A stretch of DNA of 64,000 nucleotides from Gemmatimonadota bacterium (GCA_039591655.1 JBDHDE010000015.1:22259-86258); one strand, 5' to 3'; counted from the first letter of the stretch, positions 17,170 through 38,468 are shown. Notes: generated from the letters alone by a model not told the origin. Translations and numbers: made by a program.

Positions 17170-18240
17170 ATGAGGCATGCAGTGGTTCTCATGGTGGTCG
17201 TCGCGGCGCTGGCGCCGGCATCCGCAGGGGCCCAGGAGCAGGCCCCGGACTCCGGTCGCAGGGCGGCGCCCCTCTTTGTCTCGCAGGGCATCCTGGAGTT
17301 GCGACTGGAGGCTCCCCTCACCAGTGTCCTCCGGGACCGCGGCAGCCGTAATCCGCGGGAGGCCACGCTGAGCTACGAGGATCCCGCGTCCGGGCCGGTG
17401 GCGCTCCCCGTCACGGTCCGAATGTATGGCAACTTCCGCGCCGATCCCGACAACTGTGATTTCCCGCCGCTGCGCATGGACCTCGATTCGACCCAGGCCA
17501 CGCAGACGGCGTTCGCCGGCCTGGACAAGCTCAGGCTCGTCGCCCACTGCCGGGACGGTGAACCGGAATATGAGCAGTACGTGCTCCGTGAGTACCTGGC
17601 GTACCGGATCTACAACCTGCTGACCGAGGTGAGCGTGCGCGCGCGCCTCGTCCACGTCACGTACGTGGACACGGAGAGTCGGCGGGCGACGCTCACCCGC
17701 TACGCCTTCTTCGTGGAGGACTACAACGATACCGCGGCGCGGAACGGCTGGCAGGTCCTGCCGGTGAAGAACGTGGCGCCTACTCAGTACGATCAGCAGC
17801 AACTCAGCCTGTTCGAGGTGTTCCAATACCTCATCGCCAACACCGACTGGGCCGTCGTGGCGGGCGAGCCGGGAGCGGACTGGTGCTGTCACAATGCCGT
17901 GCCGGTCGGGACATGGGCGGGCCCGGTGCTGCCCCTGCCGTTCGACTTCGACTGGTCGGGCATCGTGAACGCCCGCTACGCCAGTCCGAGCTCCCGACTC
18001 CGCATCCCGTCGGTGCGGGTGCGGCGTTTCTGGGGCCTGTGCCGGCCGCAGGACGAGCTCGAAGCGGTCTTCCCACTGTTCGAGGATCGTCGGGAAGCGA
18101 TCTACGACCTGTTTCGGAACCAGGACGGCCTCGACTCACGCTATCTGCGGGAGACGCTGGAGTACCTCGACGAGTTCTACGCCGTCCTAGGGGATTCCGA
18201 GGCCGTCAATAAGGAGATGACCCGCCGGTGCCGGGGGTGA
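17170..18240 (+). CDS. Exported CotH-like atypical kinase-fold protein (paralog 1)
   Basis: Signal peptide (AGA-Q); CDFPPLR, KLRLVAHC, EYLAY, FQYLIANTDW, CCHN and PFDFD. ORF is certain; fold assignment is inferred. Confidence 0.65.
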   Translation: MRHAVVLMVVVAALAPASAGAQEQAPDSGRRAAPLFVSQGILELRLEAPLTSVLRDRGSRNPREATLSYEDPASGPVALPVTVRMYGNFRADPDNCDFPPLRMDLDSTQATQTAFAGLDKLRLVAHCRDGEPEYEQYVLREYLAYRIYNLLTEVSVRARLVHVTYVDTESRRATLTRYAFFVEDYNDTAARNGWQVLPVKNVAPTQYDQQQLSLFEVFQYLIANTDWAVVAGEPGADWCCHNAVPVGTWAGPVLPLPFDFDWSGIVNARYASPSSRLRIPSVRVRRFWGLCRPQDELEAVFPLFEDRREAIYDLFRNQDGLDSRYLRETLEYLDEFYAVLGDSEAVNKEMTRRCRG

Positions 18241-18286
18241 AGCGCTGATCCGGGTGGGGAGCGGCCGCCGCCGCGACCGCCGGGCG

Positions 18287-19396
18287 ATGGCCTTCCTGGG
18301 CTGTCGAGGGTGGGGGTGGATGGTCGGATCGGTCCTGTTGCTGGCGGTCGGGACGGCGTGCCCCGTGGCTGGGCAGCAGGTGCAGCGCCCGCTCGAGGGC
18401 GAGACCGCTGCACCGGCTCCGCTGTTCGCGTCGCACGAGGTGCTCACCCTGAATCTCGAGGCGCCACTGGCGTCGCTCCGGGACGACCGGGGTGAGGACC
18501 CTCCGGAGCGGGACGCGGTGTTGATGTACTTCGACGGTCTGGGGCAGCCCGTGCGGCTGGACGTGCAGCTCCGCACACGAGGCCACACCCGACTGCTCCG
18601 CCAGATCTGCGACTTTCCTCCCCTGCGGGTGAACTTCCGCCGGAGCCAGGTCGAGGGCACGGTCTTCGAGGGCCAGAACAAGCTCAAGCTGGTCACCCAC
18701 TGCCAGGATCGCCAACTCGAGTACCAGCAGTACGTGCTGCTGGAGTACCTCGTGTACCGCGCGTATGGCCTCTTCACCGAGGCGGGCTTCCGGGTACGCC
18801 TAGCGTGGATCACGTACCTGGACCCGGATACGGAGCGCGATCCCTACTCCCGGTTCGCCTTCTTCATCGAGGAAGAGGAAGACCTGGCGGAGCGGAACGG
18901 CTGGGAGGTGATCAAGGTCGAGAGGATCCATCCGTACGACCTACAGGCCGGCCAGCTGCGCCTCTTCGAGGTGTTCCAGTACTTGATCGGCAACACCGAT
19001 TGGTCCGTGGTGGCGCGGGAGCGGGGCAAGACCTGGTGCTGCCACAACGCTCGGGTGATCGGCAACCTGGCCGGGGTGGCGCTGCCGGTGCCGTACGACT
19101 TCGACATGGCCGGCATCATCGATACGCGATACGCGACGGCGGATACGAGCCTGGGTATTCACAGCGTGCGGCAGCGCCAGTTCATGGGGTTTTGCGCGCC
19201 GCGGGAGGAGCTCGAGGCGGTTTTCTCGTTGTTCAACGAGCGGCGAGAGGCTGTCTACGCCGTCTTCCGAGATCAGGCCGGGTTGAGCGAGCGGAGCGTG
19301 CGTCGCACGATGGGGTATCTGGACGATTTCTACGACATCATCAACGACCCGGGCGCCGTCACGCGAGAGATGATCGAGCCCTGCCGCGAGCTATGA
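18287..19396 (+). CDS. Exported CotH-like atypical kinase-fold protein (paralog 2)
   Basis: Same motif series as the upstream gene: RG..R, CDFPPLR, KLKLVTHC, EYLVY, FQYLIGNTDW, CCHN, PYDFD. Start may be 18320. Confidence 0.65.
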   Translation: MAFLGCRGWGWMVGSVLLLAVGTACPVAGQQVQRPLEGETAAPAPLFASHEVLTLNLEAPLASLRDDRGEDPPERDAVLMYFDGLGQPVRLDVQLRTRGHTRLLRQICDFPPLRVNFRRSQVEGTVFEGQNKLKLVTHCQDRQLEYQQYVLLEYLVYRAYGLFTEAGFRVRLAWITYLDPDTERDPYSRFAFFIEEEEDLAERNGWEVIKVERIHPYDLQAGQLRLFEVFQYLIGNTDWSVVARERGKTWCCHNARVIGNLAGVALPVPYDFDMAGIIDTRYATADTSLGIHSVRQRQFMGFCAPREELEAVFSLFNERREAVYAVFRDQAGLSERSVRRTMGYLDDFYDIINDPGAVTREMIEPCREL

Positions 19397-20773: not shown

Positions 20774-23700
20774 TCACTTGCAGGGCAGGAAGCGAACCGT
20801 CGTTTCCATCTCTTCGAGTACCTGAGCCAGGGCGGACACCGTCTCGTCGATGTCATGCTCCGTGGTTTCTGACGAGAGGGAGAAACGCACTGCGCAGTGC
20901 ACCGCCTCCTCATCGCGGCCCATCGCGATGAGCACGTGCGTGGGTTCGGGCGAGCCGGACTTGCAGGCCGACCCGGAGGACAGCGAGATCCCGTGCTGAT
21001 CGAGAGCCACGACGAGTGACTCGCCCCTGAGACCGGGCAGGGTCAGGTTGAGGGTGTTGGCGAGCCGTTCGTCGGCGTGGCCGTTCAAGACCGCCTGGGG
21101 GATCAGCATCCGAATGCCGGCGGCCAGCTTGTCCCGCAGCCGCTTCGTCTCCTCGCTGTCCCGCACCGCCTGCAGGGCGAGCTGGGCGGCCTTCCCCATC
21201 CCCACGATGGCCGGCACATTCTCGGTCCCTGCGCGCAGCCCCGCCTCCTGCTTCCCGCCATGGACGAGCGGCGCCAGCTTCACGCCGCGCCTCACGTACA
21301 GGGCCCCGACCCCCTTGGGTCCGTGGAACTTGTGCCCGGAGAGGGTCAAGAGGTCGGCCCCGAGGGCGTTCACGTCGATGGGGATCTTCCCCGCCGCCTG
21401 CACGGCGTCGGTGTGGAACAGGGCGCCGTGCTCGTGGGCGATTGCGCGGAGATCGGCAATCGGCTGGATCGTCCCGACCTCATTGTTGGCCATCATTACG
21501 GAGACGAGAACGGTGTCGGCAGTGAGGGCCCGGCGCAGCGTCTCGGGATGCAGCACTCCGTCTCGGTCCACCTCACAGTAGGTCACACGGTAGCCGATAT
21601 CCTCCAGAAACCGGCACGTCTCCAGGACTGCGGGGTGCTCGATCGCACTCGTGACGATGTGGCTCCCGGGGCCGCCGTTCGCGAATGCAATCCCCTTGAT
21701 GGCGAGGTTGTCGCCTTCGGAGCCGCCGCCGGTGAAGATGATACGCCGGGGGCGGGCGTTGATGAGTCGCGCCACGTGGCGCCGGGCGGTTTCGATGCCC
21801 TCCCGGGCGTCCCGGCCCACCCCGTGGATGCTCGAGGGGTTCCCGTGGCTGGCTGCGAGGTAGGGGAGCATCGCCTCCCGGGCCGCGTCGGCCACACGGG
21901 TCGTGGCGTTGTTGTCGAGATAGATCCGCCGCGGCGGTGCCTTGGCCCGGGCTGGCGCGCCCAGCACGACGGGTCCGCAGGCCTCGGCGGCGCGGTCGGC
22001 GCTGCGGCGGGTGGACGGCGTCCCCGCCTCGACCTTCGCCACGTCGCACAGCAGCGCCTTGTAGACGGGGAAGCCTGAAATCTCGTCGCAGTTGTCGAGG
22101 TCGGTGAGCTCGTTGACGTTCCAGTCCTGCCACGCCTTGGATCCCACGGGCGTGCCGCCTCCCATGTTGCACTCGATGGCGCCGGCAACGATGTCGTCGG
22201 TCACCCGCGCCCTGAACGGCACGCTGCCGCGGAGGGTGCGCACCTCGACCAAGTCCCCGGTGCGGATGTCGCGCCGGGCGGCATCGGCGGCGCTCAGCTC
22301 CACCGTGGGCTCCGGGTTGTCCTTGGCCAGGCCCGCGATGCCGTGATGCTGGGACCGGAAGTCGGTGTGAGGCCTGGCGCCGGAGTTGAACACCAGTGGG
22401 AACTGCTCGCCGAGGTCTGGCCGGCTGACTGGGCCTTCGGTTGGCTCGGTGTACTTCGGGAGCGGCTCGTGGCCGTACTCCTCCAACAATGTGGACCAGA
22501 TCTCGAACTTGCCGGTGGGGGTGTCGAAGCCGGACTCGCCGTCCTGCCGCAGGCCGCCCTTCTCCCACTTCCTGTAATCCATCATGGGGGTGGGGGTCTT
22601 CACCCAACCACCGGATTCCCTGACGTCTTCCAGAGTGTGGCCCGAGCCCTCCAGGGCGAAGCGGATCATCTCCTCCTCGCTCTGGGGGTAGAGTTGGCCG
22701 TACCCGAGGCGCCGGGCCAGCTCGGCCATGATGAGGTAGTCGTTGCGGGCCTCTCCCACCGGCTCGACGAGCTTCTCCCGCAGGCGGAATATCGGGCCGT
22801 ACACCATGTACGAATCGATCTCGAACATGGTGGTGGCGGGCAGCACGACGTCGGCGTAGGCAGCGTCGGCGGTGAGCTGCCGGTCGATGCAAACCAGGAA
22901 GTCCAACGCGCGCAGCGTGTCGCGCCACAGCGCTGTCTGCGGCCAGGAGGTGAGCAGGGACGCCCCGTGCACGATCAGCCCCCGGATGCGGTAGGGTTTG
23001 CCCTCGAGCACGGATGTGACCAGGCCGCTGGCGTGCGACTCGCCCCGGAGGTTGCTGTAGATGGGGAACTTCTCCCGAGCGACCGCGCGGTCCAGGTCGG
23101 GGTTCTCCTGGTTGCAGGATCGGTTGATCGGAAAGTGCGAGCCCAGCATCGCCAGGCCGATGCCGCCCGGGACATCCAGCTGCCCCGCCAGCGCGAACAG
23201 GGTCAGGACAGCGCGGATGGCCTGGATGCCGCTGTTGGAGTACTCCAGGCCGGTGTACATGACGGGGCAGGCGCCCGTTGCGTTGCAGATGCGCCGCGCC
23301 AGCTCCCGAATGGTATCCGCCGGCACCCCGGTGATCGACTCGGCAACCTCGGGGCGGAAGTGTTGCACATAGGTCCGGAGCTCCTCGAAGCCGTGACACC
23401 ACTGCTCGGCGAACGGTTCGTCGTAGAGTTCCTCGTCGATCATGACCTCGATCAGGCTGAGCGCGAGGGCGCCGTCGGTTCCCGGGCGGATGGGGACCCA
23501 TTGGGCTCCAGTCCGCGCGACCGTCTCCGTGCGGCGGGGATCGATCACGACGATGTCGGCGCCCCGCCTGGCGGCCGCCTCCAGCCGATGCATGTCCAGA
23601 GGCGGGGAGTCTGTGGCCGGATTCGCCCCCCACACCACCAGCATTTCCGCGTTCTCCATGTCTGTGAACATGTTGACCAGCATCCGTCCCATGGTGACGA

Positions 23701-24181
23701 AGGGTGCGATCATGGCGAAGGACACGTAACAGAGCGCGCCCACACCCATGGTGTTGGGAGAGCCGAACGGGAACAGCATGTTGGAGGCCGAGGATACCGC
23801 CACGCCCTTGGGTTGGAACATGTCGCACAGGGAGAGTTCGAAGGCCCCACGGCCTGTGTAGATCGAGACGGCCTCCGGACCGGATTCGTGCTTGATCGTG
23901 TTGAGGCGCTCGACGATGAGGTCGTACGCCTCGTCCCACGTGATGCGCTCGAACTCGAGCGTCCCCTTCGGGCCGACGCGCCTCAGGGGATGCCTGAGGC
24001 GGTGCTCCGAGTAGATGATCTCGGGGGCGTGGGACCCGCGCCGGCAGATCATGCCGAGCGGGTGACCGGTGTCCGCCCGGATGTCCTCGATCTTCCTGTT
24101 CCGCATCCCCACCTCGACCCAGCATCCCGCGGGACAGATGCCGCAGATTCCCTTCTTCCAGTCGAGCTGCTGCTGAGCCAT
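20774..24181 (-). CDS. Fusion of a molybdopterin (bis-MGD) oxidoreductase and an IscS/NifS-type cysteine desulfurase
   Basis: N-terminus: CGICPAGC...C Fe-S motif, WGANP, VIDPR, IRPGTD, ADVVLPA and dinucleotide-binding domain. C-terminus: YLDNNATT, GNPSSIH, NNEVG, HTDAVQ, SGHKFHGPKG, RAGTEN and SSGSAC. One uninterrupted 1135-aa ORF. Confidence 0.9.
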   Translation of the reverse strand: MAQQQLDWKKGICGICPAGCWVEVGMRNRKIEDIRADTGHPLGMICRRGSHAPEIIYSEHRLRHPLRRVGPKGTLEFERITWDEAYDLIVERLNTIKHESGPEAVSIYTGRGAFELSLCDMFQPKGVAVSSASNMLFPFGSPNTMGVGALCYVSFAMIAPFVTMGRMLVNMFTDMENAEMLVVWGANPATDSPPLDMHRLEAAARRGADIVVIDPRRTETVARTGAQWVPIRPGTDGALALSLIEVMIDEELYDEPFAEQWCHGFEELRTYVQHFRPEVAESITGVPADTIRELARRICNATGACPVMYTGLEYSNSGIQAIRAVLTLFALAGQLDVPGGIGLAMLGSHFPINRSCNQENPDLDRAVAREKFPIYSNLRGESHASGLVTSVLEGKPYRIRGLIVHGASLLTSWPQTALWRDTLRALDFLVCIDRQLTADAAYADVVLPATTMFEIDSYMVYGPIFRLREKLVEPVGEARNDYLIMAELARRLGYGQLYPQSEEEMIRFALEGSGHTLEDVRESGGWVKTPTPMMDYRKWEKGGLRQDGESGFDTPTGKFEIWSTLLEEYGHEPLPKYTEPTEGPVSRPDLGEQFPLVFNSGARPHTDFRSQHHGIAGLAKDNPEPTVELSAADAARRDIRTGDLVEVRTLRGSVPFRARVTDDIVAGAIECNMGGGTPVGSKAWQDWNVNELTDLDNCDEISGFPVYKALLCDVAKVEAGTPSTRRSADRAAEACGPVVLGAPARAKAPPRRIYLDNNATTRVADAAREAMLPYLAASHGNPSSIHGVGRDAREGIETARRHVARLINARPRRIIFTGGGSEGDNLAIKGIAFANGGPGSHIVTSAIEHPAVLETCRFLEDIGYRVTYCEVDRDGVLHPETLRRALTADTVLVSVMMANNEVGTIQPIADLRAIAHEHGALFHTDAVQAAGKIPIDVNALGADLLTLSGHKFHGPKGVGALYVRRGVKLAPLVHGGKQEAGLRAGTENVPAIVGMGKAAQLALQAVRDSEETKRLRDKLAAGIRMLIPQAVLNGHADERLANTLNLTLPGLRGESLVVALDQHGISLSSGSACKSGSPEPTHVLIAMGRDEEAVHCAVRFSLSSETTEHDIDETVSALAQVLEEMETTVRFLPCK

Positions 24182-25134: not shown

Positions 25135-27420
25135 TTGAGCCCGACCGATCGCGCGACCAATACGGCCTTCATCGCCGCGGTGGTGACCGCAACCGCGATG
25201 ATCGCCTTCCAGATGGCGGCCAAGGCGACGAGGGATGCGCTGTTCCTGTCCACCTTCGACGTCTCCGCCCTTCCCCGGATGGTGATCGTCGCGGCGTTGG
25301 TCGCGGTGGGCGTGGCCCTACTGGCATCCCGGTGGATGACGGCAGTCGGGCCCGGACGTCTGGTGCCCGCAGCGTTCGCACTGAGCGCCGCATTACTGTT
25401 GGCGGAGTGGGCCCTGATTGGCCCGTTTCGCCGCGGGGTGGCCATCGCCCTCTACCTGCACTATGCGGCGCTGGGCGCGGTGCTGATCTCCGGCTTCTGG
25501 TCCGTCGTGAACGAGCGTTTCGATCCGCGCACCGCGAAGCGCTACGTGGGCCGGATCGCCGCGGGCGCAACCGTGGGCGGTGTGCTGGGCGGCCTCCTGG
25601 CTGAGCGGGTCGGTGCGACCCTCTCCATGGCGGCAATGCTGCCGATCCTCGCGGGCATCCACTTCCTCTGTGCCTTCGTGGTGAACGGTGTGCCGGCAGA
25701 GCGCCGACCGGCGCCGCAGCGGCGCTCGCGCCGGAGCGTCGGACGGCCCCCGGAGCGCTCGGGGCTCAAGACGCTGGCCAATACCCCCTATCTCCGTGGA
25801 TTGGTGGCGCTGGTCCTCCTCGCCACGATCACGGAGGTCCTGATCGACTACGTCTTCAAGGCACGAGCCACGGGGGCGTTGGGGAGCGGCGAGTCGCTGC
25901 TGCGGTTCTTCGCCGCCTTCTACACCGGTGTTTCCCTGCTCACCGTGCTGGTCCAGGCGGCAGCCAGCCGGGTGACGCTGCAGCACCTGGGGCTGACCCG
26001 CACAGTGGCCCTGTTGCCGGCGGTCACGGGCCTGGGGAGTGTGGGGGCGCTGGCCTTCCCTGGGCTTGCCAGTGCGTCTGCGGCGCGGGGATCGGAGCAG
26101 GTCCTCCGCAACGGGCTCTACCGCTCTGGCTATGAGCTGCTGTTCACCCCGCTGCAGCCGGAGCAGAAGCGCGCCACGAAGACTCTGGTGGACGTTGGCG
26201 TCGTGCGATTGGGAGACATCCTCGGGGGGGCGATCGTTCAGGTGCTGCTCCTGGTGGCGGTAGCCGGGGTGAGCCGCTTGCTCCTGGGTCTCGCCGCGGT
26301 GATCTCCGTGGTGGCCGTGGTCGTCGCACTGGGGCTGCGCCGGGGGTACATGAACACCCTGGAACGCAGCCTGCTGTCGCGGGCCGTGGAGCTCGACCTG
26401 GAAGAGGTGGACGACATCACCACCCGTACCGCGGTGCTCCACAGCACGGGGACGTTGGCGTTGGGCCTGACGGCGGCTCACCCGACCCCGACGCTTGATC
26501 ATGCGATCCCGACGCCCGCGATGGGCGTCAAATCGCCGGTTGCCGCGGCGGAAGTGCCGGGGCGGGAAAAGGTAGCGACGCCGGCGACCCCGCTGGACCC
26601 GGAGGTGGCCTTGATCGTGGAGCTTCGGTCACGGGACGCCCCCCGCGTGATCGCCGCGTTGGGAGCGGGGCGTCTCACGCCGACCGTTGTGCCCCACGTG
26701 ATCCCGCTGCTCGCCTGGGACGAGGTCGTGGCGGACGCGCTCGCGGCACTGCGTGAGGTGGCGCACCAGGTCACGGGGCAGCTGGCGGACCGCCTGCTCG
26801 ATCACGGCGAGGAGTTTGCCGTGCGCCGGCGTCTCCCCCTCGCGCTCGTGGCCAGCCCGACGGAGCGCGCGCTCGACACCCTCTTCCGGGGGCTCGACGA
26901 TCCGCGGTTCGAGGTGCGCTATCGTTGCGGGCGGGCGCTGGTTCGCCTACTGGAGCTCAACCCCAAGCTCCGGGTGGAAGAAGAGCGCGCCTACGCTGCG
27001 GTGCTGGGGGAAGTGGCAGTGGACAAGGGTGTGTGGGAGAGCCACCGGTTGCTCGACAAGATGGAGGACGAGGAATGGTCCCCTGTGATGGACGAGGTGT
27101 TGCGCGAACGGGCGAACCGCAGCCTGGAGCACGTGTTTACCGTGTTGTCCCTGGTCCTGCCGCGCCAACCTCTCAAGATCGCGTTCCGCGGACTTCACGC
27201 CAAGGACGCGATCCTTCGAGGTACGGCGCTGGAGTATCTGGAGAGTGCGTTGCCGGAGCATGTACGGGTGCAGCTCTGGCCCTTTCTCGAGGATACCCGT
27301 CCCCGCCGGCGGGAGTCCCGGACCACGGATGAGGTGCTGCAGGACCTGTTCCAGTCCAACCAGTCCATCGTGATGAACCTCAAGGAGCTGCGGAAGCAAA
27401 AGAAGGAGGAGTCGGGGTAG
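25135..27420 (+). CDS. Npt1/Npt2 (TLC ATP/ADP translocase-like) transporter fused to a HEAT-repeat domain
   Basis: KATRDALFL, FW...FDPRTAKR, DYVFK, ELLFTP, K...D...R.GD; C-terminal HEAT-like helices (LDDPRFEVRY, RGTALEYLE). Confidence 0.8.
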   Translation: MSPTDRATNTAFIAAVVTATAMIAFQMAAKATRDALFLSTFDVSALPRMVIVAALVAVGVALLASRWMTAVGPGRLVPAAFALSAALLLAEWALIGPFRRGVAIALYLHYAALGAVLISGFWSVVNERFDPRTAKRYVGRIAAGATVGGVLGGLLAERVGATLSMAAMLPILAGIHFLCAFVVNGVPAERRPAPQRRSRRSVGRPPERSGLKTLANTPYLRGLVALVLLATITEVLIDYVFKARATGALGSGESLLRFFAAFYTGVSLLTVLVQAAASRVTLQHLGLTRTVALLPAVTGLGSVGALAFPGLASASAARGSEQVLRNGLYRSGYELLFTPLQPEQKRATKTLVDVGVVRLGDILGGAIVQVLLLVAVAGVSRLLLGLAAVISVVAVVVALGLRRGYMNTLERSLLSRAVELDLEEVDDITTRTAVLHSTGTLALGLTAAHPTPTLDHAIPTPAMGVKSPVAAAEVPGREKVATPATPLDPEVALIVELRSRDAPRVIAALGAGRLTPTVVPHVIPLLAWDEVVADALAALREVAHQVTGQLADRLLDHGEEFAVRRRLPLALVASPTERALDTLFRGLDDPRFEVRYRCGRALVRLLELNPKLRVEEERAYAAVLGEVAVDKGVWESHRLLDKMEDEEWSPVMDEVLRERANRSLEHVFTVLSLVLPRQPLKIAFRGLHAKDAILRGTALEYLESALPEHVRVQLWPFLEDTRPRRRESRTTDEVLQDLFQSNQSIVMNLKELRKQKKEESG

Positions 27421-28989: not shown

Positions 28990-30540
28990 TCAGTGATTGC
29001 CACTCGGCGGCGCATGGACGGGCGCGCCCACCCAGAGCTTGGTAGAGGACTCCACCACGCTCTCGGTCGTGCCGACGACCGCGGCGGGTTGTTGCGCCGG
29101 GAGCAGAAGGCGTCCGCCCACGAATGCCAAGGTAGCGGCCACGGCCGTGGCGGCCAGCACGCCGAGCTTGGCGACGCCCAGGAGGTCGGGGTCCTGGAAG
29201 GCCAGCTCGGCGATGAAGATGGCCATGGTGAACCCGATGGCTGCGGCGAAGCCGACTACCATCATGCCGCGCCAATCCACGCCCTGGGGCAGCACGCACA
29301 GCCGGAGTTTGATGGCGAGCCAGCTGAACGCCAGCACGCCGACGGTCTTCCCGACCAGCAGCCCCAGGATGATCCCACCGAGCACCGCCATCCCACCGGG
29401 CTCGGCAAAATCGATGCCGCCGAGCCGCACGCCTGCGTTGGCCAGGGCGAAGAGCGGCATGACCCCGAAGGCCGTCCACGGATGCAGCAGCGCCTCCAGG
29501 CGCACTGCGGGAGCGATGGCCTCCCGCTGGGCAACGGCGATCTGCTGCAGCGGCTCGATCAGCTCGGGGTCGGACTTGCCGTCCGCGGCTCGCTCGCGGA
29601 ACTCGTCGAGGGCCCGGTGCGCCGTCATGAGAAAGCCCTCTCGCCCGTACCACGCCCGGGCCGGCGCCAGGAGGCCGATCATCACGCCGGCAATCGTGGG
29701 GTGGATGCCGGCCCAGTAGAGCCCCGCCCACGCCAGCAGGAAGGGCAGGGGTGCGACCCCGGGCTTCACACCCATCTTCAGGAGCAGCCACCCCAGGCCC
29801 AGTCCCGCCAGCGCCAATAGCAGTCCATTGACCGCGAAGCCGCTGGCGTAGAAGATGGCGATCACCAGGATTGCCCCGATGTCGTCGATGATCGCAAAGG
29901 CCAGCAGCAGCACCCTCAGGGCGGGGGGAACCCGCTTGCCCAGGAGAGTGAGCACGCCCACCGCGAAAGCGATGTCGGTGGCCATGGGCACGCCCCAGCC
30001 GTCGGCACCGGGCCCCGACACGTTCATGGCGGCGTAGATCGTCGCCGGGACCAGCATCCCACCCACTGCTGCGGCGAGGGGGAGGGCGGCCCGCTTCACG
30101 TCCGACAGGGCGCCGTCCACGATCTCCCGTTTGATCTCCAGGCCGACCACCAGGAAGAACACCGCCATGAGGAGGTCGTTGATCCAGAAGTGGAGCGACT
30201 TCTCCATGGTCCAGTCGCCGATCCCGATGCGGAACGGCGTATGCCACAGTGCGTCGTAGCTGTCGGCCCAGGGGGAGTTGGCCCAGATGAGAGCCACGGC
30301 GGCGGCCCCGATGAGTATGATCCCACTCGCCGCTTCGATGTGAAGGAAACGCTCGATGGGCCGGCGCACGGCCACTGCGACACGCCGGGCGGGTAGCCAG
30401 GCCCAAGGTGGGATGGTGGGAGTACCGCTCGTGGACTCGGGGTCCTTCACGCCGCTTGTCCTCAGGGATTTGCGGGGAGGAATGGCGTCGGCCGGTGGAC
30501 CGCCCCGCCGGCGGTCCACGACAGAGACAATACCCGTCAC
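28990..30540 (-). CDS. nhaA: Na+/H+ antiporter NhaA
   Basis: WINDLLMAVFFLVVGLEIKRE, MATDIAF, AIIDD, GIHPTIAG, FALANAG and GFTMAIFI; start uncertain. Confidence 0.92.
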   Translation of the reverse strand: MTGIVSVVDRRRGGPPADAIPPRKSLRTSGVKDPESTSGTPTIPPWAWLPARRVAVAVRRPIERFLHIEAASGIILIGAAAVALIWANSPWADSYDALWHTPFRIGIGDWTMEKSLHFWINDLLMAVFFLVVGLEIKREIVDGALSDVKRAALPLAAAVGGMLVPATIYAAMNVSGPGADGWGVPMATDIAFAVGVLTLLGKRVPPALRVLLLAFAIIDDIGAILVIAIFYASGFAVNGLLLALAGLGLGWLLLKMGVKPGVAPLPFLLAWAGLYWAGIHPTIAGVMIGLLAPARAWYGREGFLMTAHRALDEFRERAADGKSDPELIEPLQQIAVAQREAIAPAVRLEALLHPWTAFGVMPLFALANAGVRLGGIDFAEPGGMAVLGGIILGLLVGKTVGVLAFSWLAIKLRLCVLPQGVDWRGMMVVGFAAAIGFTMAIFIAELAFQDPDLLGVAKLGVLAATAVAATLAFVGGRLLLPAQQPAAVVGTTESVVESSTKLWVGAPVHAPPSGNH

Positions 30541-30608: not shown

Positions 30609-32213
30609 ATGACCGCCCCGCCCTTGCTCGACGCGCAAATACGGACGACGCCCGGAGGCGCCGGCACGCTGCCTCTCGATATGATCCAGGCCGCGTCACG
30701 CCGCCTCGGGATCGCGGCTCTGGTGTGGGCATTCCTGTGGGCCTTCTCCCTGGTGATGAACAACCTGGTGAGCCCCATCCTCTCGCCAGGTACGCCGCTG
30801 GACGACGCATGGCCGTGGCCCGGCAACCCGGTGGCACTGGCGGTCATTCTGGTGTCCCTCGGTCTGTTTGCGTACACCCGCTGGCACGCGTGCGACTGCC
30901 AGTTCTCCCTGGACCTCGGGCTGGCGTACGAGGTCTTCCTGGCCTTCGCCATCGGGCTCGTGAACCAGTGGACCCCCAACACCGTGGGGCTGTCGTGGAT
31001 CTGCGTGCTGGTTCTCGTGCACGCGATGATAGTGCCGAATACCCGGGGCAAGACGCTGGCGGCAGCCCTATTGGCAGCGTCGATGGATCCGGTGGGCCTC
31101 GCCATTACCGCCGCGCGGGGAGTACCCGTGCCGTCGGCTCCCGTCATCCTCTGGACGTATCTGCCCAACTACATCTGCGCACTGCTGGCCGTGATCCCGG
31201 CGCAGATCATCACCAGGCTCGGCAGCCAGGTGCGGGACGCCCGCGCGCTGGGGAGCTACCAGTTGGATGAGCTGCTGGGGCGGGGTGGGATGGGAGAAGT
31301 CTACAGCGCGCGGCATCGGCTGCTCCATCGCCCGGCGGCGGTCAAGCTGATCCGGCCGGATACGCTGAGCTCCCGCGACGGTGAGAGAGCCGACACCATC
31401 GTGGCCCGGTTCAAGCGAGAGGCGGAGGCGGTCTCGAGCCTGCACTCGCCGCACACCATCGCCCTGTACGACTTCGGGGTTACGGACGAAGGCAATCTGT
31501 ACTACGTGATGGAGTTGCTGCGGGGGCTCGACCTGGACTCGCTGGTGGAGCAGTTCGGGCCGGTGCGTCCCCCCCGCGCGGTGCACCTGCTGCGGCAGGC
31601 CTGCCACTCCCTAGCCGAGGCGCACGCCGGGGGACTCATCCACCGGGACGTCAAGCCGGCAAACCTCTACTCCTGTTGGGTGGGGTTGGAGGCGGACTTC
31701 GTGAAGGTCTTGGACTTCGGCCTGGTGAAGCCACCTGCGGAGCAGGAGGCGGAACAGGTCAGGCTCACTGCCCCCGACCTGACCACCGGCACGCCGGCGT
31801 ACATGGCTCCCGAGCTGGCCCTGCGCCAGGATCCGGACTGGCGGGCCGACATCTACTCCTTGGGCTGCGTGGCGTACTGGTTGCTCACCGGTCGGTTGGT
31901 GTTCGATGCGCCGACTCCCATGAAGATGATGGTCCAGCACATCGAGACGCGGCCCCTGCCGCCGTCGCGCTACAGCGAGTTCCAGATCGGGGCCGATCTG
32001 GACGAGCTGGTGCTCGCCTGCCTCGAGAAGGACCGACGCCGGCGCCCGTCCGACGCTCGCCAACTGGCCCGGCGGCTGGCCGAGTGCGAGGTGGGAGAGT
32101 CGTGGACGCCGGAAGTTGCCGAGCGTTGGTGGCGTGCCCACCTGCCCGAGCTCGTGCCGGCGCAGGCGCGGCGGGCGTCGCAACCGGGCGTGCCGGTGAC
32201 GGAAGAGGTCTGA
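30609..32213 (+). CDS. Membrane Ser/Thr protein kinase (N-terminal multi-TM domain, C-terminal kinase)
   Basis: GRGGMGEVY, AAVK, HRDVKPANL, DFG and GTPAYMAPE after about 6 TM helices. Confidence 0.92.
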   Translation: MTAPPLLDAQIRTTPGGAGTLPLDMIQAASRRLGIAALVWAFLWAFSLVMNNLVSPILSPGTPLDDAWPWPGNPVALAVILVSLGLFAYTRWHACDCQFSLDLGLAYEVFLAFAIGLVNQWTPNTVGLSWICVLVLVHAMIVPNTRGKTLAAALLAASMDPVGLAITAARGVPVPSAPVILWTYLPNYICALLAVIPAQIITRLGSQVRDARALGSYQLDELLGRGGMGEVYSARHRLLHRPAAVKLIRPDTLSSRDGERADTIVARFKREAEAVSSLHSPHTIALYDFGVTDEGNLYYVMELLRGLDLDSLVEQFGPVRPPRAVHLLRQACHSLAEAHAGGLIHRDVKPANLYSCWVGLEADFVKVLDFGLVKPPAEQEAEQVRLTAPDLTTGTPAYMAPELALRQDPDWRADIYSLGCVAYWLLTGRLVFDAPTPMKMMVQHIETRPLPPSRYSEFQIGADLDELVLACLEKDRRRRPSDARQLARRLAECEVGESWTPEVAERWWRAHLPELVPAQARRASQPGVPVTEEV

Positions 32214-32221
32214 CTGGCCGC

Positions 32222-33937
32222 CTAGCGCTCCACCGCCACCACCCGCCCGCTGGCCCGGGCGAGATAGACCACCACTGACGAGCTCCAGCCCTCTCCACGA
32301 TCCACCTGCAGCTCGATCTCCAAGAAGGGGTGATCCCCCAGCGATGCCGTTCCAACTGTGGGGCCGCCGGCGGCATCCAGGTCGATGGCCCGTTCCGCGG
32401 TCTCCAACCACTGGGTGCGGCCCGCCGGCTGGCGCTCCGGGGTCACCGCTGCGACTCGGTAGCGATACCGTGCGGTCTGTCCGGGGTAGACTCCCCGCTC
32501 GGCGCCGAGGTCGTGGAATCGCATGATCCCCTCGGCATGAGTGAAGAAGTCCAGCGGGACCACCCGGTCGAAGAAGAACCGTCCGATCCGGTCGCGGCGC
32601 TCCCCCAGGATCCGCGTGATGTAACGGGCCACCTCCGGCCGCGGATAATGGCCCTCGGCCACGATGGTCTCGAGGTGCCGGTCGGTGAAGGCCGTGATGA
32701 TCTTGGCCGCCCAGTAGGCGTCCCGTTTGGTGAGGTTAGCGAAGGCCGTGTTCGGCTCCAGCGGCTTGAAGGCCATGGGCTCGAACCTCTCGCTCTCGAA
32801 GTAGCCCACTTCCTCGAGCCCCTCCGGGGGATCGAGCCGCCGCCAGACGTCCTGCTGCGTACCGAGTGCCACGGCGCGTGCCAGGATGCGGACCAGGTCC
32901 AACGTGTACTCGTGACACGCCATGGGGTACGGGCCCAGTGCCCCGGCCCCCAGGCTGCTGGCGAAGTCGATCAGGTAGTGTCGGATGAAACGCCGCCCGT
33001 CCTCCTCCACGTACATGTCCAGCGTGTTGCCCTGCTTCGTGTCATAGTGACACAGCCACGCAGAGAGAATCCGCAGGCCCCGGAGCTCGCGGCGGTCCTC
33101 GTGGTTCACGCGGTCGTTGGGGTCGTCCTGGCGTCGCCCCTTCCAGTCGAACGGTCCCATCCAGTTCCCGCCGAGGAGCCGGCTCGCCAGGGCGCGCCAG
33201 GAGCCGTCGGGCAGCCGATCAACGCGGGCCAGCACGCTATCCAGATCGGCCGCCGTCATGATGCGCTCGTTCCCGTCCGGGTCCGTGAAGTCCACATCGT
33301 CGGCGAGCACGAGCCGCTCCCGGGCGAACGTCACCACGAAATCCTCCGGAACGTTGTAGCCCGCGGTGTGGAAGATGCGGCCGGAGATGACACCTGCCGC
33401 CGATGCCATGCCGAGGTAGCCCGGCGGATCGAACTTGATGAAGTAGGTGTCCCCCCTTCCGTCCTCGATGGTGAACCCCGGCGTCACACCCTCCGTCTTG
33501 GCGCCCACCACCGTCCAGGACGTCGAAACGTCGGGCCCCGCCACAGTGAGTGGCCCGCGCGCTGCCGTCTCCGGATCCATGGGGAAGAGACCGATCCGGT
33601 TGGTGAACCACGCGGAGTTCGGTACCTCGTCCAGCGTGTTCACGTTGACGGCCGGAGCCACGTGATCGCCGCCGGCGATGCCGCCGAGGCCTCGTACGAG
33701 CCGCGCTGGGTTGAGCATGCGGTCCAGCGGCCGGAAGATGGAGGCCTCGGCCCCCGAGCGGATGATGTTGGGGTCTCGCGGCTCGGGGGCCGGGATGTCC
33801 CGGCGGTCATCGGCGTGCCACGTCACCGGTGCATCCCGCAGCGGCGGCCCGCCGCCCGAGGCGGCCAGGCCCGCGAGGGCGCACAGGGCTACGGCGCTCG
33901 CGCGCCGGCTACCGCGGCGGAACCGGATCCTTCCCAT
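32222..33937 (-). CDS. Exported hypothetical protein with HipA/PI3K-like kinase motifs
   Basis: Basic and hydrophobic leader; KTEGVTPGF, YFIKFD, GYNVPE, WLCHYDTKQGNTLD and HYLIDFA. Start overlaps the upstream Omp85 gene. Confidence 0.65.
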   Translation of the reverse strand: MGRIRFRRGSRRASAVALCALAGLAASGGGPPLRDAPVTWHADDRRDIPAPEPRDPNIIRSGAEASIFRPLDRMLNPARLVRGLGGIAGGDHVAPAVNVNTLDEVPNSAWFTNRIGLFPMDPETAARGPLTVAGPDVSTSWTVVGAKTEGVTPGFTIEDGRGDTYFIKFDPPGYLGMASAAGVISGRIFHTAGYNVPEDFVVTFARERLVLADDVDFTDPDGNERIMTAADLDSVLARVDRLPDGSWRALASRLLGGNWMGPFDWKGRRQDDPNDRVNHEDRRELRGLRILSAWLCHYDTKQGNTLDMYVEEDGRRFIRHYLIDFASSLGAGALGPYPMACHEYTLDLVRILARAVALGTQQDVWRRLDPPEGLEEVGYFESERFEPMAFKPLEPNTAFANLTKRDAYWAAKIITAFTDRHLETIVAEGHYPRPEVARYITRILGERRDRIGRFFFDRVVPLDFFTHAEGIMRFHDLGAERGVYPGQTARYRYRVAAVTPERQPAGRTQWLETAERAIDLDAAGGPTVGTASLGDHPFLEIELQVDRGEGWSSSVVVYLARASGRVVAVER

Positions 33938-35363
33938 GAAACAGCCCCTTGGTCCACTGGAAGATCTGCTCGCTCTTGAGCCGGAACATCGATTGCTCAC
34001 TGCTCCGGGCGAACTCCACCCGCAGCAGGAACCCCTGTCCGTCCACCAGTCGCAGACCCAGGCCGTAGGAGAACGTCAGGTTGTCCAGGTTGATCTGGTC
34101 GAGCTCGTCGAAAACCTGACCTAAGTCGGCCAGGATGTAGATGTCGAGCCCTGCCGCCGCGGCGTGCTGGAACGCCCACAGCGGCCAGCGATACTCCGCG
34201 CTGAGCACGGTGATTCCCCTGTCCCGCCACCGGAAGTCGTTGTAACCCCGCATGAGATCGGGGTCGTCGTTGGTGAGGAGCCGCTGAAACGGGATATCCG
34301 TCGTCTGCCCCATCGGCTCGATCCACGACAGGTACCACCGCAGGGCCAGTGCATGGTAGTTGTACCATAGAGGAATGAACTGCTGCAGCTCCGCCCGAAA
34401 GGTCCAGAAGTCAATGTTGTCCTCGGGGTCCGTGCCGAGGAAGTACGACGCGCGGAGCTGACGCAGGCCTCCGCGGGTCGGCCGGCCCGTCTCCTCGAAA
34501 TCCGCGTGACCCAGGAGAACCTCCAGGCTCACACCGTCGGAGCGCTCACCGAAGCCGGAAGGCAGATCGTCGGCGAACCGCTGGCTGAGCGAGGGCTCGA
34601 AATCCCCACCCGGCTCGCCGGCGCTCACTCCGGTGTAGAGTAGCTTCCCCCGAAGCAGGAAGTTGCCGATGCGTTGCCGGTAGCTCGTGCCGAGCCAGGT
34701 GAGCCTCTGCCGGTAGAACGATTCGTCGAACCGGCTGGTCTCCGGCCCGTTGCCGAAGTAGCGGGCGTTGGCCCGGTCGCGGAACCCGGCGCCGAAGCCC
34801 AGCATGCCGCCCCGGCCGATGGGGAACTGCGCGCCGCCCGTGATTCTCTGGTCGCCCCGCACTGTGGTGTAGGCGCGGAGGCGCAGCTCGTTCCCCGGAG
34901 CGCCGACGTGATTGTGTTGGATCGAGAGGCCACCGCCGAACCCCGAGAGCCCGCCGGCGGTGATCTCCGGAAAGAGCTGGATGTTCCCCGGTGGGCGGAT
35001 GAAGATGTCGAGTATCTGTTTGTCGTCCATGAACTCGACGGTCGCGAGGATCCCGGCACCTACGGCTCTGAAGGGGAAGGTGATCACGCGATAGGGGGAG
35101 ACCAGCACGGCCTCCCAGAAAGACGCCGGACGGTTGGCGAACCGGGCGGTGGCCGAGTCGGTGGGTGCCGGGATCTCGCCCCAGTAGCTCACCCCGATGC
35201 CGGTGCCCTGGAGCCGTGCCGCACTGTCGGGAACCTGGGAGCGCTCCTGCGCCGCCGCCGTGTCGACACTAGCCGAGCCAGCCAGCGTGGCACTGGTGAG
35301 AGCGAGGAGTCGCAGGCGGCGGTGCCAGCTCGCACCGCACGGCCGGGAGGGAAGGCGGTGCAC
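33909..35363 (-). CDS. Omp85 (BamA/TamA-like) outer-membrane barrel without recognisable POTRA domains
   Basis: Signal peptide; LMRGYNDFRWRD (loop-6 RGY/F motif), SAEYRWPL, DLGQVF and SYGLGLR. Confidence 0.8.
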   Translation of the reverse strand: MHRLPSRPCGASWHRRLRLLALTSATLAGSASVDTAAAQERSQVPDSAARLQGTGIGVSYWGEIPAPTDSATARFANRPASFWEAVLVSPYRVITFPFRAVGAGILATVEFMDDKQILDIFIRPPGNIQLFPEITAGGLSGFGGGLSIQHNHVGAPGNELRLRAYTTVRGDQRITGGAQFPIGRGGMLGFGAGFRDRANARYFGNGPETSRFDESFYRQRLTWLGTSYRQRIGNFLLRGKLLYTGVSAGEPGGDFEPSLSQRFADDLPSGFGERSDGVSLEVLLGHADFEETGRPTRGGLRQLRASYFLGTDPEDNIDFWTFRAELQQFIPLWYNYHALALRWYLSWIEPMGQTTDIPFQRLLTNDDPDLMRGYNDFRWRDRGITVLSAEYRWPLWAFQHAAAAGLDIYILADLGQVFDELDQINLDNLTFSYGLGLRLVDGQGFLLRVEFARSSEQSMFRLKSEQIFQWTKGLFHGKDPVPPR

Positions 35364-35376
35364 GGTCGGCCTCGGA

Positions 35377-36810
35377 TCACTCCATTTCGAAGACCACGAA
35401 CCGGAGCTCGCCGCGTCGGTCCACATGGAGGACGACCGGGTCGCCCCGCGCGAGAGAGCCCAGCATGTTGGAGAGCTGCCCCACACTCACCACGTCTTGT
35501 CCGTTTACCGAGTAGATCACGTCGGCGATCTGCAGGCCGGAGGCCACCGACGGGACCCCGGCTGCCTGCGCGACCACAGCCACGCCGCCACGCTGCCTGA
35601 GCCAGGGTAGCATTGCCGAGATCTCGTCGTCCACCTCGACGGCCAGGATACCGAGCTCGCGAATGAGGTTGCGCTCCCGGCCCACCACTTCGGCGAAGGC
35701 ACTGGGGTCGTTGGCCCGCTCGGCGACGGACACCTGCATGGTCAGGCGGTTGAGGCCCCGCCGCACTTCCAGCGTGACGACATCGCCGACCCGGCGCTGG
35801 TAGACGTTGACGTCGAACTGCCGGGCGTTCTCCATTGGCTTGCCGTCCAGCGACACGATGACGTCTCCCACTTGGAGGCCGGCGCGCGCCCCCGGCGAAC
35901 GGGGATAGACGTCGGACACGACGACGCCCCAGGTGCGGGTGAGACGCAACCCCACCGCCAGGGTCGGCGTGATGGTCTGTGCGTTCACCCCGATCACGCC
36001 GCGGCGGACCCGGCCGCTCTCCCGGATCTGCTCGAACACGGCGCGCACGATGTTGCTGGGCGAGGCGAAGCCGATGCCCTCGCTCCCTCCGGACTGGGAC
36101 AGGATCAGGGTGTTGATCCCGATGACGTGACCGCGGGAGTTCACCAGCGGCCCCCCGGAACTGCCGGGGTTGATGGGAGCGTCGGTCTGGATGTAGGCCA
36201 TCGGATGGTCGGGCTGGAGCTGCCGTCCCACGGCGCTCACCACCCCCATCGTCACGGACGCCTCGAGGCCGAGGGGGCTGCCGAACGCAAACACGATGTT
36301 CCCCGGGCGCACCTCGTCTGAGTCGCCCAGCTCGAGGTAGGGCAGGTCGGTACCCTCGATCTTGATCACCGCCAGGTCGGTCTCGATATCCGTGCCCACT
36401 ATGCTCCCCTCGGCCCGCCGGCCCACCGGTTTCACCAGCGACCGAGCTGGGACGTCGTCAGCAGCGGGCACGGCCAACACCACGTCGAGCTGCCGGGCGC
36501 CCTCAACGACGTGGTTGTTGGTGACGATGTACCCGTCGGCGGAGACGATGACCCCGGATCCACCGCGGCGCTGGCGTCCGAGAGCCGGCGTCACACCCCG
36601 CGCTTGGCCCTCCACGGGGCCGATGGCGGTGACGTAGATCTCCACCACTGCGCGGCCCACTTGCTCCGTGAGCGCGCCGACGTACGCGCTCATATCAACC
36701 AGCACCGCCGGCGGCTCGACGGTCGGTTCCTGTGCCAGGCCCGGCGCCGACCAACCCAGGAGAGCGGCGGCGGCGAGCCACGTGGCGGTGTGGGCGGTCC
36801 TGAACTGCAT
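35377..36810 (-). CDS. HtrA/DegP-like serine protease (trypsin domain plus two PDZ domains)
   Basis: GSGVI, TNNHVV, DLAVIK, QTDAPINPGSSGGPL and two PDZ domains; signal peptide. Confidence 0.92.
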   Translation of the reverse strand: MQFRTAHTATWLAAAALLGWSAPGLAQEPTVEPPAVLVDMSAYVGALTEQVGRAVVEIYVTAIGPVEGQARGVTPALGRQRRGGSGVIVSADGYIVTNNHVVEGARQLDVVLAVPAADDVPARSLVKPVGRRAEGSIVGTDIETDLAVIKIEGTDLPYLELGDSDEVRPGNIVFAFGSPLGLEASVTMGVVSAVGRQLQPDHPMAYIQTDAPINPGSSGGPLVNSRGHVIGINTLILSQSGGSEGIGFASPSNIVRAVFEQIRESGRVRRGVIGVNAQTITPTLAVGLRLTRTWGVVVSDVYPRSPGARAGLQVGDVIVSLDGKPMENARQFDVNVYQRRVGDVVTLEVRRGLNRLTMQVSVAERANDPSAFAEVVGRERNLIRELGILAVEVDDEISAMLPWLRQRGGVAVVAQAAGVPSVASGLQIADVIYSVNGQDVVSVGQLSNMLGSLARGDPVVLHVDRRGELRFVVFEME

Positions 36811-36857
36811 CTGGTGAGTCCTCTCGAAGCTTCTGGTTTCGGAGTCGCGCCCGGTCA

Positions 36858-38468
36858 TCAGGCGGAGATGGCGGGTGCCAGCTCCCCCTTGTCGCACGCA
36901 GCGAGCTCGGGGCCCTCGGGAAGATGCGCGTCCCACCAGCTGCGGGCCCGCTCGGCCGTCCACCGCTCCGGGAGATCGAGCGCGTCGAGCCTCCCGCCCA
37001 CCTCCTCCGCCCCTGCCGGTCGGTCGCTCGGGTCCTTTGCGAGGCACTGCAGCACGAGCTCATCGAAGGCCGGCGGGATGGCGAGCTCGGAGCGCTTGGA
37101 CGGCGCCTCCGGCTCGTCCGAGATGTGTCGGTGCATCATCTTGATGGGGTTGTCCGCCTCGAACACGAGCCGTCCGCTGACGAGCCAGTAGAGCACGCAG
37201 CCCAGCGCATACACATCCACCTGTTGATCCGCGCTACGCTCGCCCATGGCGAGCTCCGGCGCCATGAATGCCGGCGTCCCAGTCGTCATGTGGGGCTGCG
37301 TGAGCATCGTCTGCTCCCGGCTCTGATCAGCCTTGACCAGCCCGAAATCGAGCACCTTCACGAAGTCCAGGGAAAAGCCCATGCGGCACGTGTGGAGGTT
37401 CGACGGCTTTATGTCACGGTGGATCAGCCCTTTGGCGTGCGCCTCCGCCAGGGACTCGCACGCCTGGCGCGCCAGGTGCGCCGCCCGCTCCGGGGGAATC
37501 GGTCCGAACCGGTTCACCAGCTCCTCGAACCCGGCGCCGTCCAACAGCTCCATCACGTAGTAGAACGCACCGTCCTCGGCGACGCCGAAGTCGTACAGCT
37601 CGATGGTGTGCGGCGACCGGAGGGTCGCGGCGGCCTGCGCCTCCCGCTTGAACCGCTCCACCGCTACGTGCTGTTGAGCGGCTGTGCTCGCCCCGAGCAC
37701 CTCTGGCCGGATCAGCTTGATCGCCGCCGGCCGCGCCAGGAGACGGTGCTCGGCGTGGAACACCTCTCCCATTCCGCCGGCTCCCAGGCGATCACCCAGT
37801 TTGTAGCTGCCCAGCTCCCGTGCCTGGCGCACCTGGCGGCCGAGTCCGCGAATGATCTTCGCGGGAAGGACGGCCAGCGCCGCGGTGAAGTACGTGGGTG
37901 CGAACGCGAAGACGGCCTCGGCTGCGCCCATGGTGATCTCCACGCCGCGCAGCTTGGCGATGGCGAGACCCACGGGATCCATCGACGCCGCGAGCAACGA
38001 GGCGACGAAGATCTTGTGGGGTGTGTTGGGCGCGATGCTCGGGTAGACCAGGATGACGATCGCGATCCAGGACAGTCCGTCAGTTGGGGAGGGGGCCCAC
38101 ATTTGGAGGACCCCGATCAGGAAGGCGGTCACCACCTCGAACCCCAGGCCCAGGTCGAGCAGCAGGTTGGGCCGGTGGTGCAGCCGCGCGGCAACAAACA
38201 CCATCGCCACCGACAGGACGAGCCCGGTGCCGGCGATCGCATTGCCCGGCATGGGCCACGGTCGGTCGCTCATGAGCATGGGGGTGTCGACGAACCGCGT
38301 AACGGCGTTTGCCAGGAATAGGCCGAACGCCCACAGCGAGGCGACTGCCAGGCTCGCGATGCCGACCCGCCTGCACGACTGGGAGAGCAACTCGGTGGGC
38401 AGGGACATGCGCCCGCTGCGGGTGGAGCCCGACGGCGTCGCCGCCGCGTGGATTCTCTCAGCACTCAT
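36858..38468 (-). CDS. Membrane Ser/Thr protein kinase, paralog of 30609-32213
   Basis: GAGGMGEVF, AAIK, HRDIKPSNL, DFG and GTPAFMAPE; shares WPxPGN and ASMDPVGLAI in the TM domain. Confidence 0.92.
   Translation of the reverse strand: MSAERIHAAATPSGSTRSGRMSLPTELLSQSCRRVGIASLAVASLWAFGLFLANAVTRFVDTPMLMSDRPWPMPGNAIAGTGLVLSVAMVFVAARLHHRPNLLLDLGLGFEVVTAFLIGVLQMWAPSPTDGLSWIAIVILVYPSIAPNTPHKIFVASLLAASMDPVGLAIAKLRGVEITMGAAEAVFAFAPTYFTAALAVLPAKIIRGLGRQVRQARELGSYKLGDRLGAGGMGEVFHAEHRLLARPAAIKLIRPEVLGASTAAQQHVAVERFKREAQAAATLRSPHTIELYDFGVAEDGAFYYVMELLDGAGFEELVNRFGPIPPERAAHLARQACESLAEAHAKGLIHRDIKPSNLHTCRMGFSLDFVKVLDFGLVKADQSREQTMLTQPHMTTGTPAFMAPELAMGERSADQQVDVYALGCVLYWLVSGRLVFEADNPIKMMHRHISDEPEAPSKRSELAIPPAFDELVLQCLAKDPSDRPAGAEEVGGRLDALDLPERWTAERARSWWDAHLPEGPELAACDKGELAPAISA

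Follow-up and report, generated by a model that had tools for sequence, protein, structure and literature searches.

The conserved core of a gene cassette in a Gemmatimonadota bacterium, positions 25135-38468 of a 64,000-nucleotide stretch (GCA_039591655.1, JBDHDE010000015.1:22259-86258; all of it referred to here as the window), comprises an Omp85 barrel, an exported kinase-fold protein that we call K3, two NTT-family carriers, multi-transmembrane Ser/Thr kinases and an HtrA protease. The reading that we favour, with a probability of roughly 0.45, is that a phosphoryl donor, probably ATP, leaves through the carriers and supplies the barrel-linked kinase in the periplasm, and that the membrane kinases gate this supply. 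In such a scheme the two inner-membrane carriers would pass the donor outwards, with ATP-for-ADP exchange as the most likely form, and K3, likely held under the barrel at a predicted periplasmic position, would phosphorylate a substrate in the envelope. Exported metallophosphoesterases, which are frequent in relatives and are represented in the host on contig C5 beside a kinase-barrel fusion, could then reverse or recycle the product. Gating of export by the membrane Ser/Thr kinases, which may phosphorylate the cytoplasmic Thr-rich loop or the HEAT arm of the carriers, is the weakest step of the model. The periplasm is regarded as ATP-free, and the free-living host encodes atpD, purH and cox1, so that ATP import is not needed. 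As NTTs of free-living bacteria are described as being without a known job in the consulted portion of PMC5381601, the cassette, with its named carriers and named exported enzyme, allows a direct test of both the periplasmic ATP question and that of the NTT role.

The host genome is 3.3 Mb and 95% complete, with the window on contig C15, and GC content is 65-69% across the window. All open reading frames named in the first-pass annotation of this DNA were found in coding frames, and annotation with Pfam and NCBIfam bore out their families: two TLC carriers, Omp85, two Pkinase proteins, HtrA, a cyclophilin, Crp and NhaA. Within the core, the genes for the kinase STK_B, HtrA, Omp85 and K3 form a tightly packed row on the minus strand, with TGA/ATG coupling at 36858, then a 13-nt gap and then the overlap that the annotation had reported, in which the Omp85 stop at 33909 and the K3 start at 33937 share 29 nt. 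STK_A, on the plus strand, converges on K3, whilst NhaA-NTT2 and NTT-HEAT run towards each other and meet at a 16-bp hairpin; terminator-like hairpins occurred at 3 sites where 4.8 are expected by chance, and neither the promoter scan nor the terminator scan exceeded chance. Strong matches among DNA sequencing runs come from marine sediment in a single study, and no RNA runs were listed as carrying the sequence.

Much of the case for a functional unit comes from the neighbourhood of K3, for which we compared 45 loci from several phyla with 10-kb flanks, together with genome samples of 151 Gemmatimonadota (the source of the nearest K3 relatives) and 61 Acidobacteriota; these sets of loci and genomes overlap in part, and kin within them are not independent. 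An Omp85 gene adjoins K3 in 42 loci when the window protein is the query and in 43 when further queries are added, and the two loci without one have no more than 203 nt upstream. The same adjacency was found in 13/13 further loci, which derive partly from the same genomes. An NTT lies within 10 kb of K3 at 20/45 loci and elsewhere in the genome for the remaining 25/25, the NTT subtypes beside K3 differing between phyla; other neighbours among the 45 loci are an exported metallophosphoesterase (16), a transmembrane kinase (12) and HtrA (6). At the level of whole genomes, an NTT-like gene is present in 17/17 Gemmatimonadota with K3 compared with 57/134 of the others, and 13 of those 17 hold a close orthologue of NTT2, taken as at least 49% identity, a limit set by a gap in the match list. 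Conversely, K3 or the kinase-Omp85 fusion described below is present in 24 of the 25 Gemmatimonadota genomes that encode an NTT2 orthologue, against 33/126 without one. In Acidobacteriota, NTT accompanies full-length K3 in 11/13 genomes, against 11/48 others, a count from which G191, G208, G224 and G225 were excluded (K3 matches with E values of 4e-7 to 4e-4 over fewer than 90 aa, none with NTT). The association of NTT with the K3 family and a POTRA-less Omp85, for which the first-pass annotation had proposed a check across genomes, is thus conserved. Literature searches found no description of an Omp85-kinase-NTT module, the parts being known separately in the consulted portions of PMC5381601 and PMC4104836.

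K3 has no Pfam or NCBIfam family and no sequence match in the PDB. Its AF2 model (pLDDT 92.7) gave Fam20C, CtkA, Fam20A and PI4KII as the top Foldseek ranks, and VIA-align returned Z scores of 13.7 for CtkA (rmsd 4.0, 225 aligned), 13.5 for Hydra Fam20 and 12.1 for CotH, with Z about 8 for an FnIII-like domain at model residues 430-534. The nearest named Atlas cluster is Fam20C (0.81, a lead only). Candidates for the beta3 Lys, the catalytic Asp-Asn and the metal-binding Asp (K147, K168, D299, N304 and D324, with roles given by position rather than superposition) are all kept in 104/106 rows. K3 has its fold in common with Fam20C/Fam20, CtkA, PI4KII and HipA (Z 10-13.7), and would likewise act outside the cytoplasm; it differs from the Fam20/CtkA group in being bacterial and barrel-linked, with an FnIII-like tail and just 8-12% identity. 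Fam20C depends on the import of ATP into the lumen in which it acts. The export leaders that had been read on the kinase-type proteins of this region were supported, for the K3 and K1 families, by a crude signal-peptide test, restricted to homologues starting with Met (16/120 for K3 and 9/120 for K1 were excluded for want of one): it was passed by 93/104 homologues of K3 and 91/111 of K1, a CotH-fold protein discussed below, compared with 13/1317 and 16/724 internal control segments, or about 1-2%. At least 3279 of the 8000 candidates scored are relatives of K3. A weak search for longer forms gave four proteins, none with a barrel; in P0241-P0243 (one record from Acidobacteriota), K3 is fused to a C-terminal region of about 600 aa without a Pfam family. 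The N-lobe of K3 also has short, weak matches in frames of 346-725 aa in G224:C4, G224:C2, G208, G191 and G225, perhaps representing a further kinase family.

The Omp85 family profile matches E. coli BamA only from residue ~421, where the barrel starts, and does so from profile position ~102/454; on this alignment there is no room for POTRA domains in the window protein. No POTRA or TPS match was found at Omp85 or K3, and the features that define two-partner or type Vd secretion were not found. A POTRA-less barrel is shared with the 'noNterm' and 'Metallo' (PF00149-Omp85) subfamilies of Heinz & Lithgow 2014 (PMC4104836), and relatives of the cassette have adjoining PF00149 genes; unlike those subfamilies as far as the consulted portion describes them, the window Omp85 pairs with a kinase-like protein or, in relatives, is fused to a kinase-like domain. 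The main text of that paper nowhere uses the word 'kinase'. The claim that the two membrane kinases are paralogous multi-transmembrane Ser/Thr kinases also held up, both matching Pkinase with 5-6 predicted transmembrane segments and 50% identity. The family of their transmembrane domain is present in 18/18 Gemmatimonadota genomes with an NTT-HEAT orthologue and in 17/133 others. The multi-transmembrane sensor domain of STK_A and STK_B has no Pfam match; there are seven copies in the host genome, and it occurs in 35/151 sampled genomes, mostly of one family.

Further support comes from loci at which K3 is absent. Among 20 loci with an NTT2 orthologue not beside K3, 13 encode a signal-bearing protein of about 850 aa in which a kinase-like N-terminal domain is fused to a barrel homologous to Omp85 (E 1e-6 to 1e-17 against the window Omp85), although at one of these (L114) the NTT is merely a broken gene; the remaining seven have the NTT alone. 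A transmembrane kinase was found in 12 and a lipoprotein-like PF00149 enzyme in seven of these NTT2 loci, the usual order in those with the fusion being STK-(HtrA)-NTT2-(phosphoesterase)-fusion-NTT-HEAT. Judged by this gene content, the fusion occupies the slot of K3 plus Omp85 in relatives. The host itself encodes such a fusion on contig C5, belonging to the NTT-linked clade and with no NTT beside it, for which the window carriers could act in trans. Neither DUF4956 nor PPK1 was found in the 45 K3 loci or the 20 NTT2-orthologue loci. At 20 further fusion loci, which are part of those found, NTT is absent, with DUF4956 at 14 and PPK1 at seven. Across the Gemmatimonadota sample the fusion is present in 49/151 genomes, 45 of which have DUF4956 or an NTT2 orthologue, against 36/102 others, and in one genus (g4) five fusion genomes have NTT without a DUF4956 match and five the reverse, with no overlap. 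Because the fusion stands beside DUF4956/PPK1 where NTT is absent, the carriers and the polyphosphate genes look like interchangeable supplies of a phosphoryl donor. If this is the case, then the natural swap between the NTT pair and the polyphosphate genes predicts the donor that each kinase should accept.

Both carriers score above the PF03219 cut-off but far under that of TIGR00769, and they are the only NTT-like genes in the host genome. NTT2 has 11 predicted transmembrane segments and falls in a kinase-linked clade of 26 rows (support 100); its family profile matches the solved NTT1 carriers 9j3n (E 5e-14) and 9j3j. The HEAT_2 match in NTT-HEAT is below cut-off, whilst its relatives match HEAT strongly. 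With the NTT/TLC (AAA) carriers the pair shares TLC matches, NTT1 homology and the occurrence of one single-domain and one HEAT-fused carrier. An NTT-HEAT(-cNBD) clade of free-living bacteria was described by Major, Embley & Williams 2017 (PMC5381601), and NTT-HEAT carriers elsewhere, in that paper and in our own comparisons, bear cNMP-binding domains. The window carriers differ from that clade in having no such domain, in not keeping canonical ATP residues and in being linked to exported kinases, Omp85 and transmembrane kinases, which the consulted portion of the paper does not mention. The central loop of NTT2 carries a Thr-rich insert that resembles the TTGTPA activation loops of STK_A and STK_B, and we infer it to be a candidate phosphorylation site. 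A sister clade of more distant NTT carriers offers a possible parallel: none of its 20 loci holds any of the three kinase families, and seven (L152, L153, L154, L160, L161, L162 and L165) adjoin genes for NAD(P)-dependent epimerase-like enzymes or aldo-keto reductases with twin-Arg-like leaders. It is possible that these carriers export NAD(P) to periplasmic enzymes, and the arrangement fits carriers that supply cofactors outwards.

Several observations weigh against ATP export to a periplasmic kinase. Kinship among the genomes inflates the co-occurrence counts. In NTT2 the AtAATP1 (AtNTT1) residues K155, E245 and K527, canonical as named in the consulted portions of PMC10654386 and PMC4256464, are replaced by S/A68, G131 and D445 (the last in 27/27 rows), where the AtNTT1 numbering rests on a shift of 84 in chain positions deduced from aligning 9j3j; K527 is held to be important for triphosphate transport (PMC4256464, consulted in part). 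K64 and an invariant R442 lie one turn from the missing residues, E310 (24/27) is a candidate for the counterpart of AtAATP1 E385, at which the alignment is gapped, and the RxGD motif of NTT2 is also present in distant carriers of these genomes. In K3, the position of the likely alphaC Glu is occupied by Gly in the clade of the window; in this column, whose identity is itself inferred, 44 genome rows have E in 25 and G in 13, with Glu in most distant rows. Two Acidobacteriota genomes of unstated completeness (G203 and G219) have full-length K3 with Omp85 and no NTT or DUF4956 match, and 30 of the 74 NTT-positive genomes lack any of the three exported kinase families. The N-terminal domain of the fusion is a putative kinase by its motifs and weak Atlas leads (0.77); when K3, K1 and this domain were compared by profile, no two of them showed similarity. 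A tree of 38 fusion domains places the NTT-linked ones in one clade (92/91) among the DUF4956-linked, so that the donor swap represents a single switch. Finally, neither donor gene was seen in five of the K1 genomes, nor in four of the fusion genomes, which are weak matches from genus g16.

A cassette of this composition might instead run on another currency or in another direction, the carriers moving ADP/AMP, NAD, some other nucleotide or the product of K3, possibly inwards for salvage, with K3 using a different donor. We consider this unlikely, though it deserves serious attention given the Asp and Gly that NTT2 holds at K527 and E245, the NAD(P) enzymes beside the sister clade and the reports, in the consulted portions of the papers concerned, that NTT substrates are not readable from sequence (PMC4256464) and that one NAD carrier lies outside the canonical NTT clade while one NTT moved no nucleotide in assays (PMC5381601). 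Phosphoesterases at 16/45 K3 loci could also feed uptake. It leaves unexplained, however, why the carriers take the place of polyphosphate genes beside the kinase-barrel fusion, and K3 has kept all five of its nucleotide- and metal-binding residues. Retention of the catalytic-loop Asp/Asn and the DFG-like Asp, which are nearly invariant, likewise makes it rather improbable that K3 binds nucleotide only as a pseudokinase or sensor in a trans-envelope signalling chain of barrel, K3, HtrA, carriers acting as sensors and membrane Ser/Thr kinases, with no phosphoryl transfer outside the cytoplasm. The Gly in the alphaC column would suit such a chain, as would the presence among the K3 fold matches of Fam20A, which is a pseudokinase. 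The tight link between transmembrane kinases and NTT-HEAT orthologues (18/18 genomes) also points this way, and so do the cNMP-binding domains of NTT-HEAT carriers elsewhere (PMC5381601, consulted in part), although transmembrane kinases stand at only 12/45 K3 loci, nearly all in Gemmatimonadota.

The barrel could alternatively secrete K3, in a type V-like manner, as an effector for the cell surface or for contact, which would draw on the ATP of prey or neighbours, with the carriers scavenging released nucleotides. The fold of K3 does resemble the secreted kinase CtkA and HipA/MavQ, its FnIII-like tail would be in keeping with a surface role, and barrels fused to enzymes are known, PlpD among them (PMC4104836, consulted in part). 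We find the idea improbable nonetheless, since the barrel has no POTRA domains, no immunity-like gene or polymorphic tip was found in the 45 K3 loci, K3 is conserved along its whole length, and the alternative partnership with polyphosphate genes suits a donor that the cell makes for itself. Least probable by some way, in our judgement, is that Omp85 and K3 are the sole unit and the carriers and membrane kinases hitch-hikers. Gene order and strand are indeed variable, and NTT is beside K3 in just 20/45 loci (3/13 among the sampled-genome loci), but there is dependence at genome level in two phyla, differing NTT subtypes accompany K3 in differing phyla, and NTT is retained where the fusion replaces K3 and Omp85.

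The first-pass annotation had treated about 21 kb, beginning with K1 and its tandem paralog K2, as one candidate system, and this wider claim fails. K1/K2 occur in 48/151 genomes, where they track DUF4956 (43/48, background 23/103) and not NTT (24/48, background 50/103). The 30 K1 loci have DUF4956 at 12, PPK1 at four and NTT at none within about 1.5 kb; together with the genome profile, this rules out a single 21-kb system. The pair lies about 13 kb from K3, outside the 10-kb flanks, which makes its count of 1/45 among K3 neighbours no fair test, and it shares a block with the K3 core only in the close kin G061, G107, G110 and G147 and in L007. The idea of an NTT-fed extracytoplasmic kinase tied to Omp85 is supported for K3, by neighbourhood, co-occurrence in two phyla and the swap between NTT and polyphosphate genes, and not for the CotH-like pair. 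The kinase folds proposed alongside it stand for K3 and for K1, whose best Foldseek match is CotH (5jda, E 1.7e-8; 5jda/5jd9 E ~2e-8, TM 0.49), with K2 related through its 50% identity to K1. Neither K1 nor K2 falls in a Pfam or NCBIfam family. By sequence, K1 reaches 13.1 bits against a cut-off of 23.8 for PF08757 and has no match in the PDB, and 18/117 homologues match Pfam CotH weakly (E<=0.1). K1 has Arg at the likely beta3 Lys (Lys in 96/117 rows) and Tyr at a position that is Arg in 113, both of which K2 keeps, and K1 may be an altered paralog.

This CotH-like pair probably belongs to a parallel system drawing on polyphosphate through DUF4956/PPK1. On contig C31 the host carries an in-frame fusion of these two, facing genes identified by eye as ppx-like, ppk1, sixA-like and CHAD-like; DUF4956 frames of similar length occur in G061, G107, G110, G147, G038 and G091. 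A group found beside pel loci, in which a CotH kinase is combined with DUF4956 and a polyphosphate polymerase, has been noted (bioRxiv 10.1101/768473, consulted in part); K1/K2 resemble it in their fold and in the tracking of DUF4956 and PPK1 by their family, and differ in that no pel genes were seen, the polymerase is PPK1 rather than VTC-type and DUF4956 is fused to it on another contig. More broadly, and with appreciably less conviction than for the cassette itself, one might envisage a modular extracytoplasmic phosphorylation system in diderms, in which an Omp85-anchored kinase is fed either by NTT-mediated ATP export or by DUF4956/PPK1 polyphosphate export, membrane Ser/Thr kinases gating the leak of ATP through the carrier loop. 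If true, such a system would give bacteria an equivalent of Golgi Fam20C signalling and would provide the missing job of NTTs in free-living bacteria.

Table. Features of the cassette and its surroundings, counted from the first letter of the window, with two loci on other contigs of the host genome (G000)
Feature	Position	Strand	Basis and remarks
K1, exported CotH-fold protein, DUF4956/polyphosphate-linked module	17170..18240	+	AF2 pLDDT 95.4; Foldseek
K2, tandem paralog of K1 (50%)	18287..19396	+	sequence comparison
Mo/W-pterin enzyme-cysteine desulfurase (NifS) fusion, ergothioneine synthase-like, passenger	20774..24181	-	1135 aa; Cys13/16/20/46/151/1073/1096/1134
NTT-HEAT fusion carrier, no cNMP-binding domain	25135..27420	+	TLC E 6e-10; HEAT_2 E 2.5e-4
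16-bp hairpin	27445..27480	.	between convergent carrier genes; terminator-like
NTT2, single-domain NTT/TLC-family carrier, kinase-linked clade	27489..28979	-	TLC E 2e-12
Thr-rich insert in NTT2 central loop, conserved PAA[TS][GT] motif	28116..28367	-	motif in 22/27 orthologues
NhaA, passenger	28990..30540	-	TIGR00773 over cut-off; start probably near 30375; 5/45 loci, close kin only
STK_A, multi-transmembrane Ser/Thr kinase, paralog of STK_B	30609..32213	+	start uncertain; longest open reading frame from 30408
K3, exported atypical kinase-fold protein (Fam20/CtkA/PI4K2/CotH group) with C-terminal FnIII-like domain	32222..33937	-	AF2, Foldseek, VIA
Omp85 barrel, POTRA-less	33909..35363	-	NF047779 E 1.5e-15; likely start GTG 35363
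HtrA/DegP protease, signal peptide; optional member	35377..36858	-	6/45 K3 loci, 4/20 NTT2-orthologue loci
STK_B, multi-transmembrane Hanks-type Ser/Thr kinase, first of row	36858..38468	-	Pkinase E 1e-41; 5 transmembrane segments
Lipoprotein-like metallophosphoesterase, then kinase-like-Omp85 fusion	G000:C5:32510-36246	+	fusion in NTT-linked clade
DUF4956-PPK1 in-frame fusion	G000:C31:1465-4287	+	940 aa

Some of the intervening genes had been suspected of being unrelated, and this was the case for the Mo-NifS fusion and nhaA; NhaA, the cyclophilin, the Mo-NifS protein, Ku and LigD are each found in 5-6/45 K3 loci, and nhaA, the cyclophilin gene and Crp are passengers. The Mo-NifS fusion matches CaMES, a metallopterin-dependent ergothioneine synthase of 1136 aa, in its near-equal length, its two modules and all eight Cys named for that enzyme (Cys14/17/21/48/153/1074/1097/1135; PMC9516567, consulted in part), and is likewise a passenger here. 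Beside it, at 20315-20755 on the plus strand, is a gene for a 146-aa membrane-anchored protein of no family, which keeps this position in close kin. Divergent Ku and LigD genes (non-homologous end joining) at 38588-42152 adjoin the cassette and are also found beside K3 in a distant myxobacterial record (L044). Towards the start of the window, at 2064-7788, lie four consecutive plus-strand open reading frames with no or weak Pfam matches, one of them with a hint of a FadL-like barrel.

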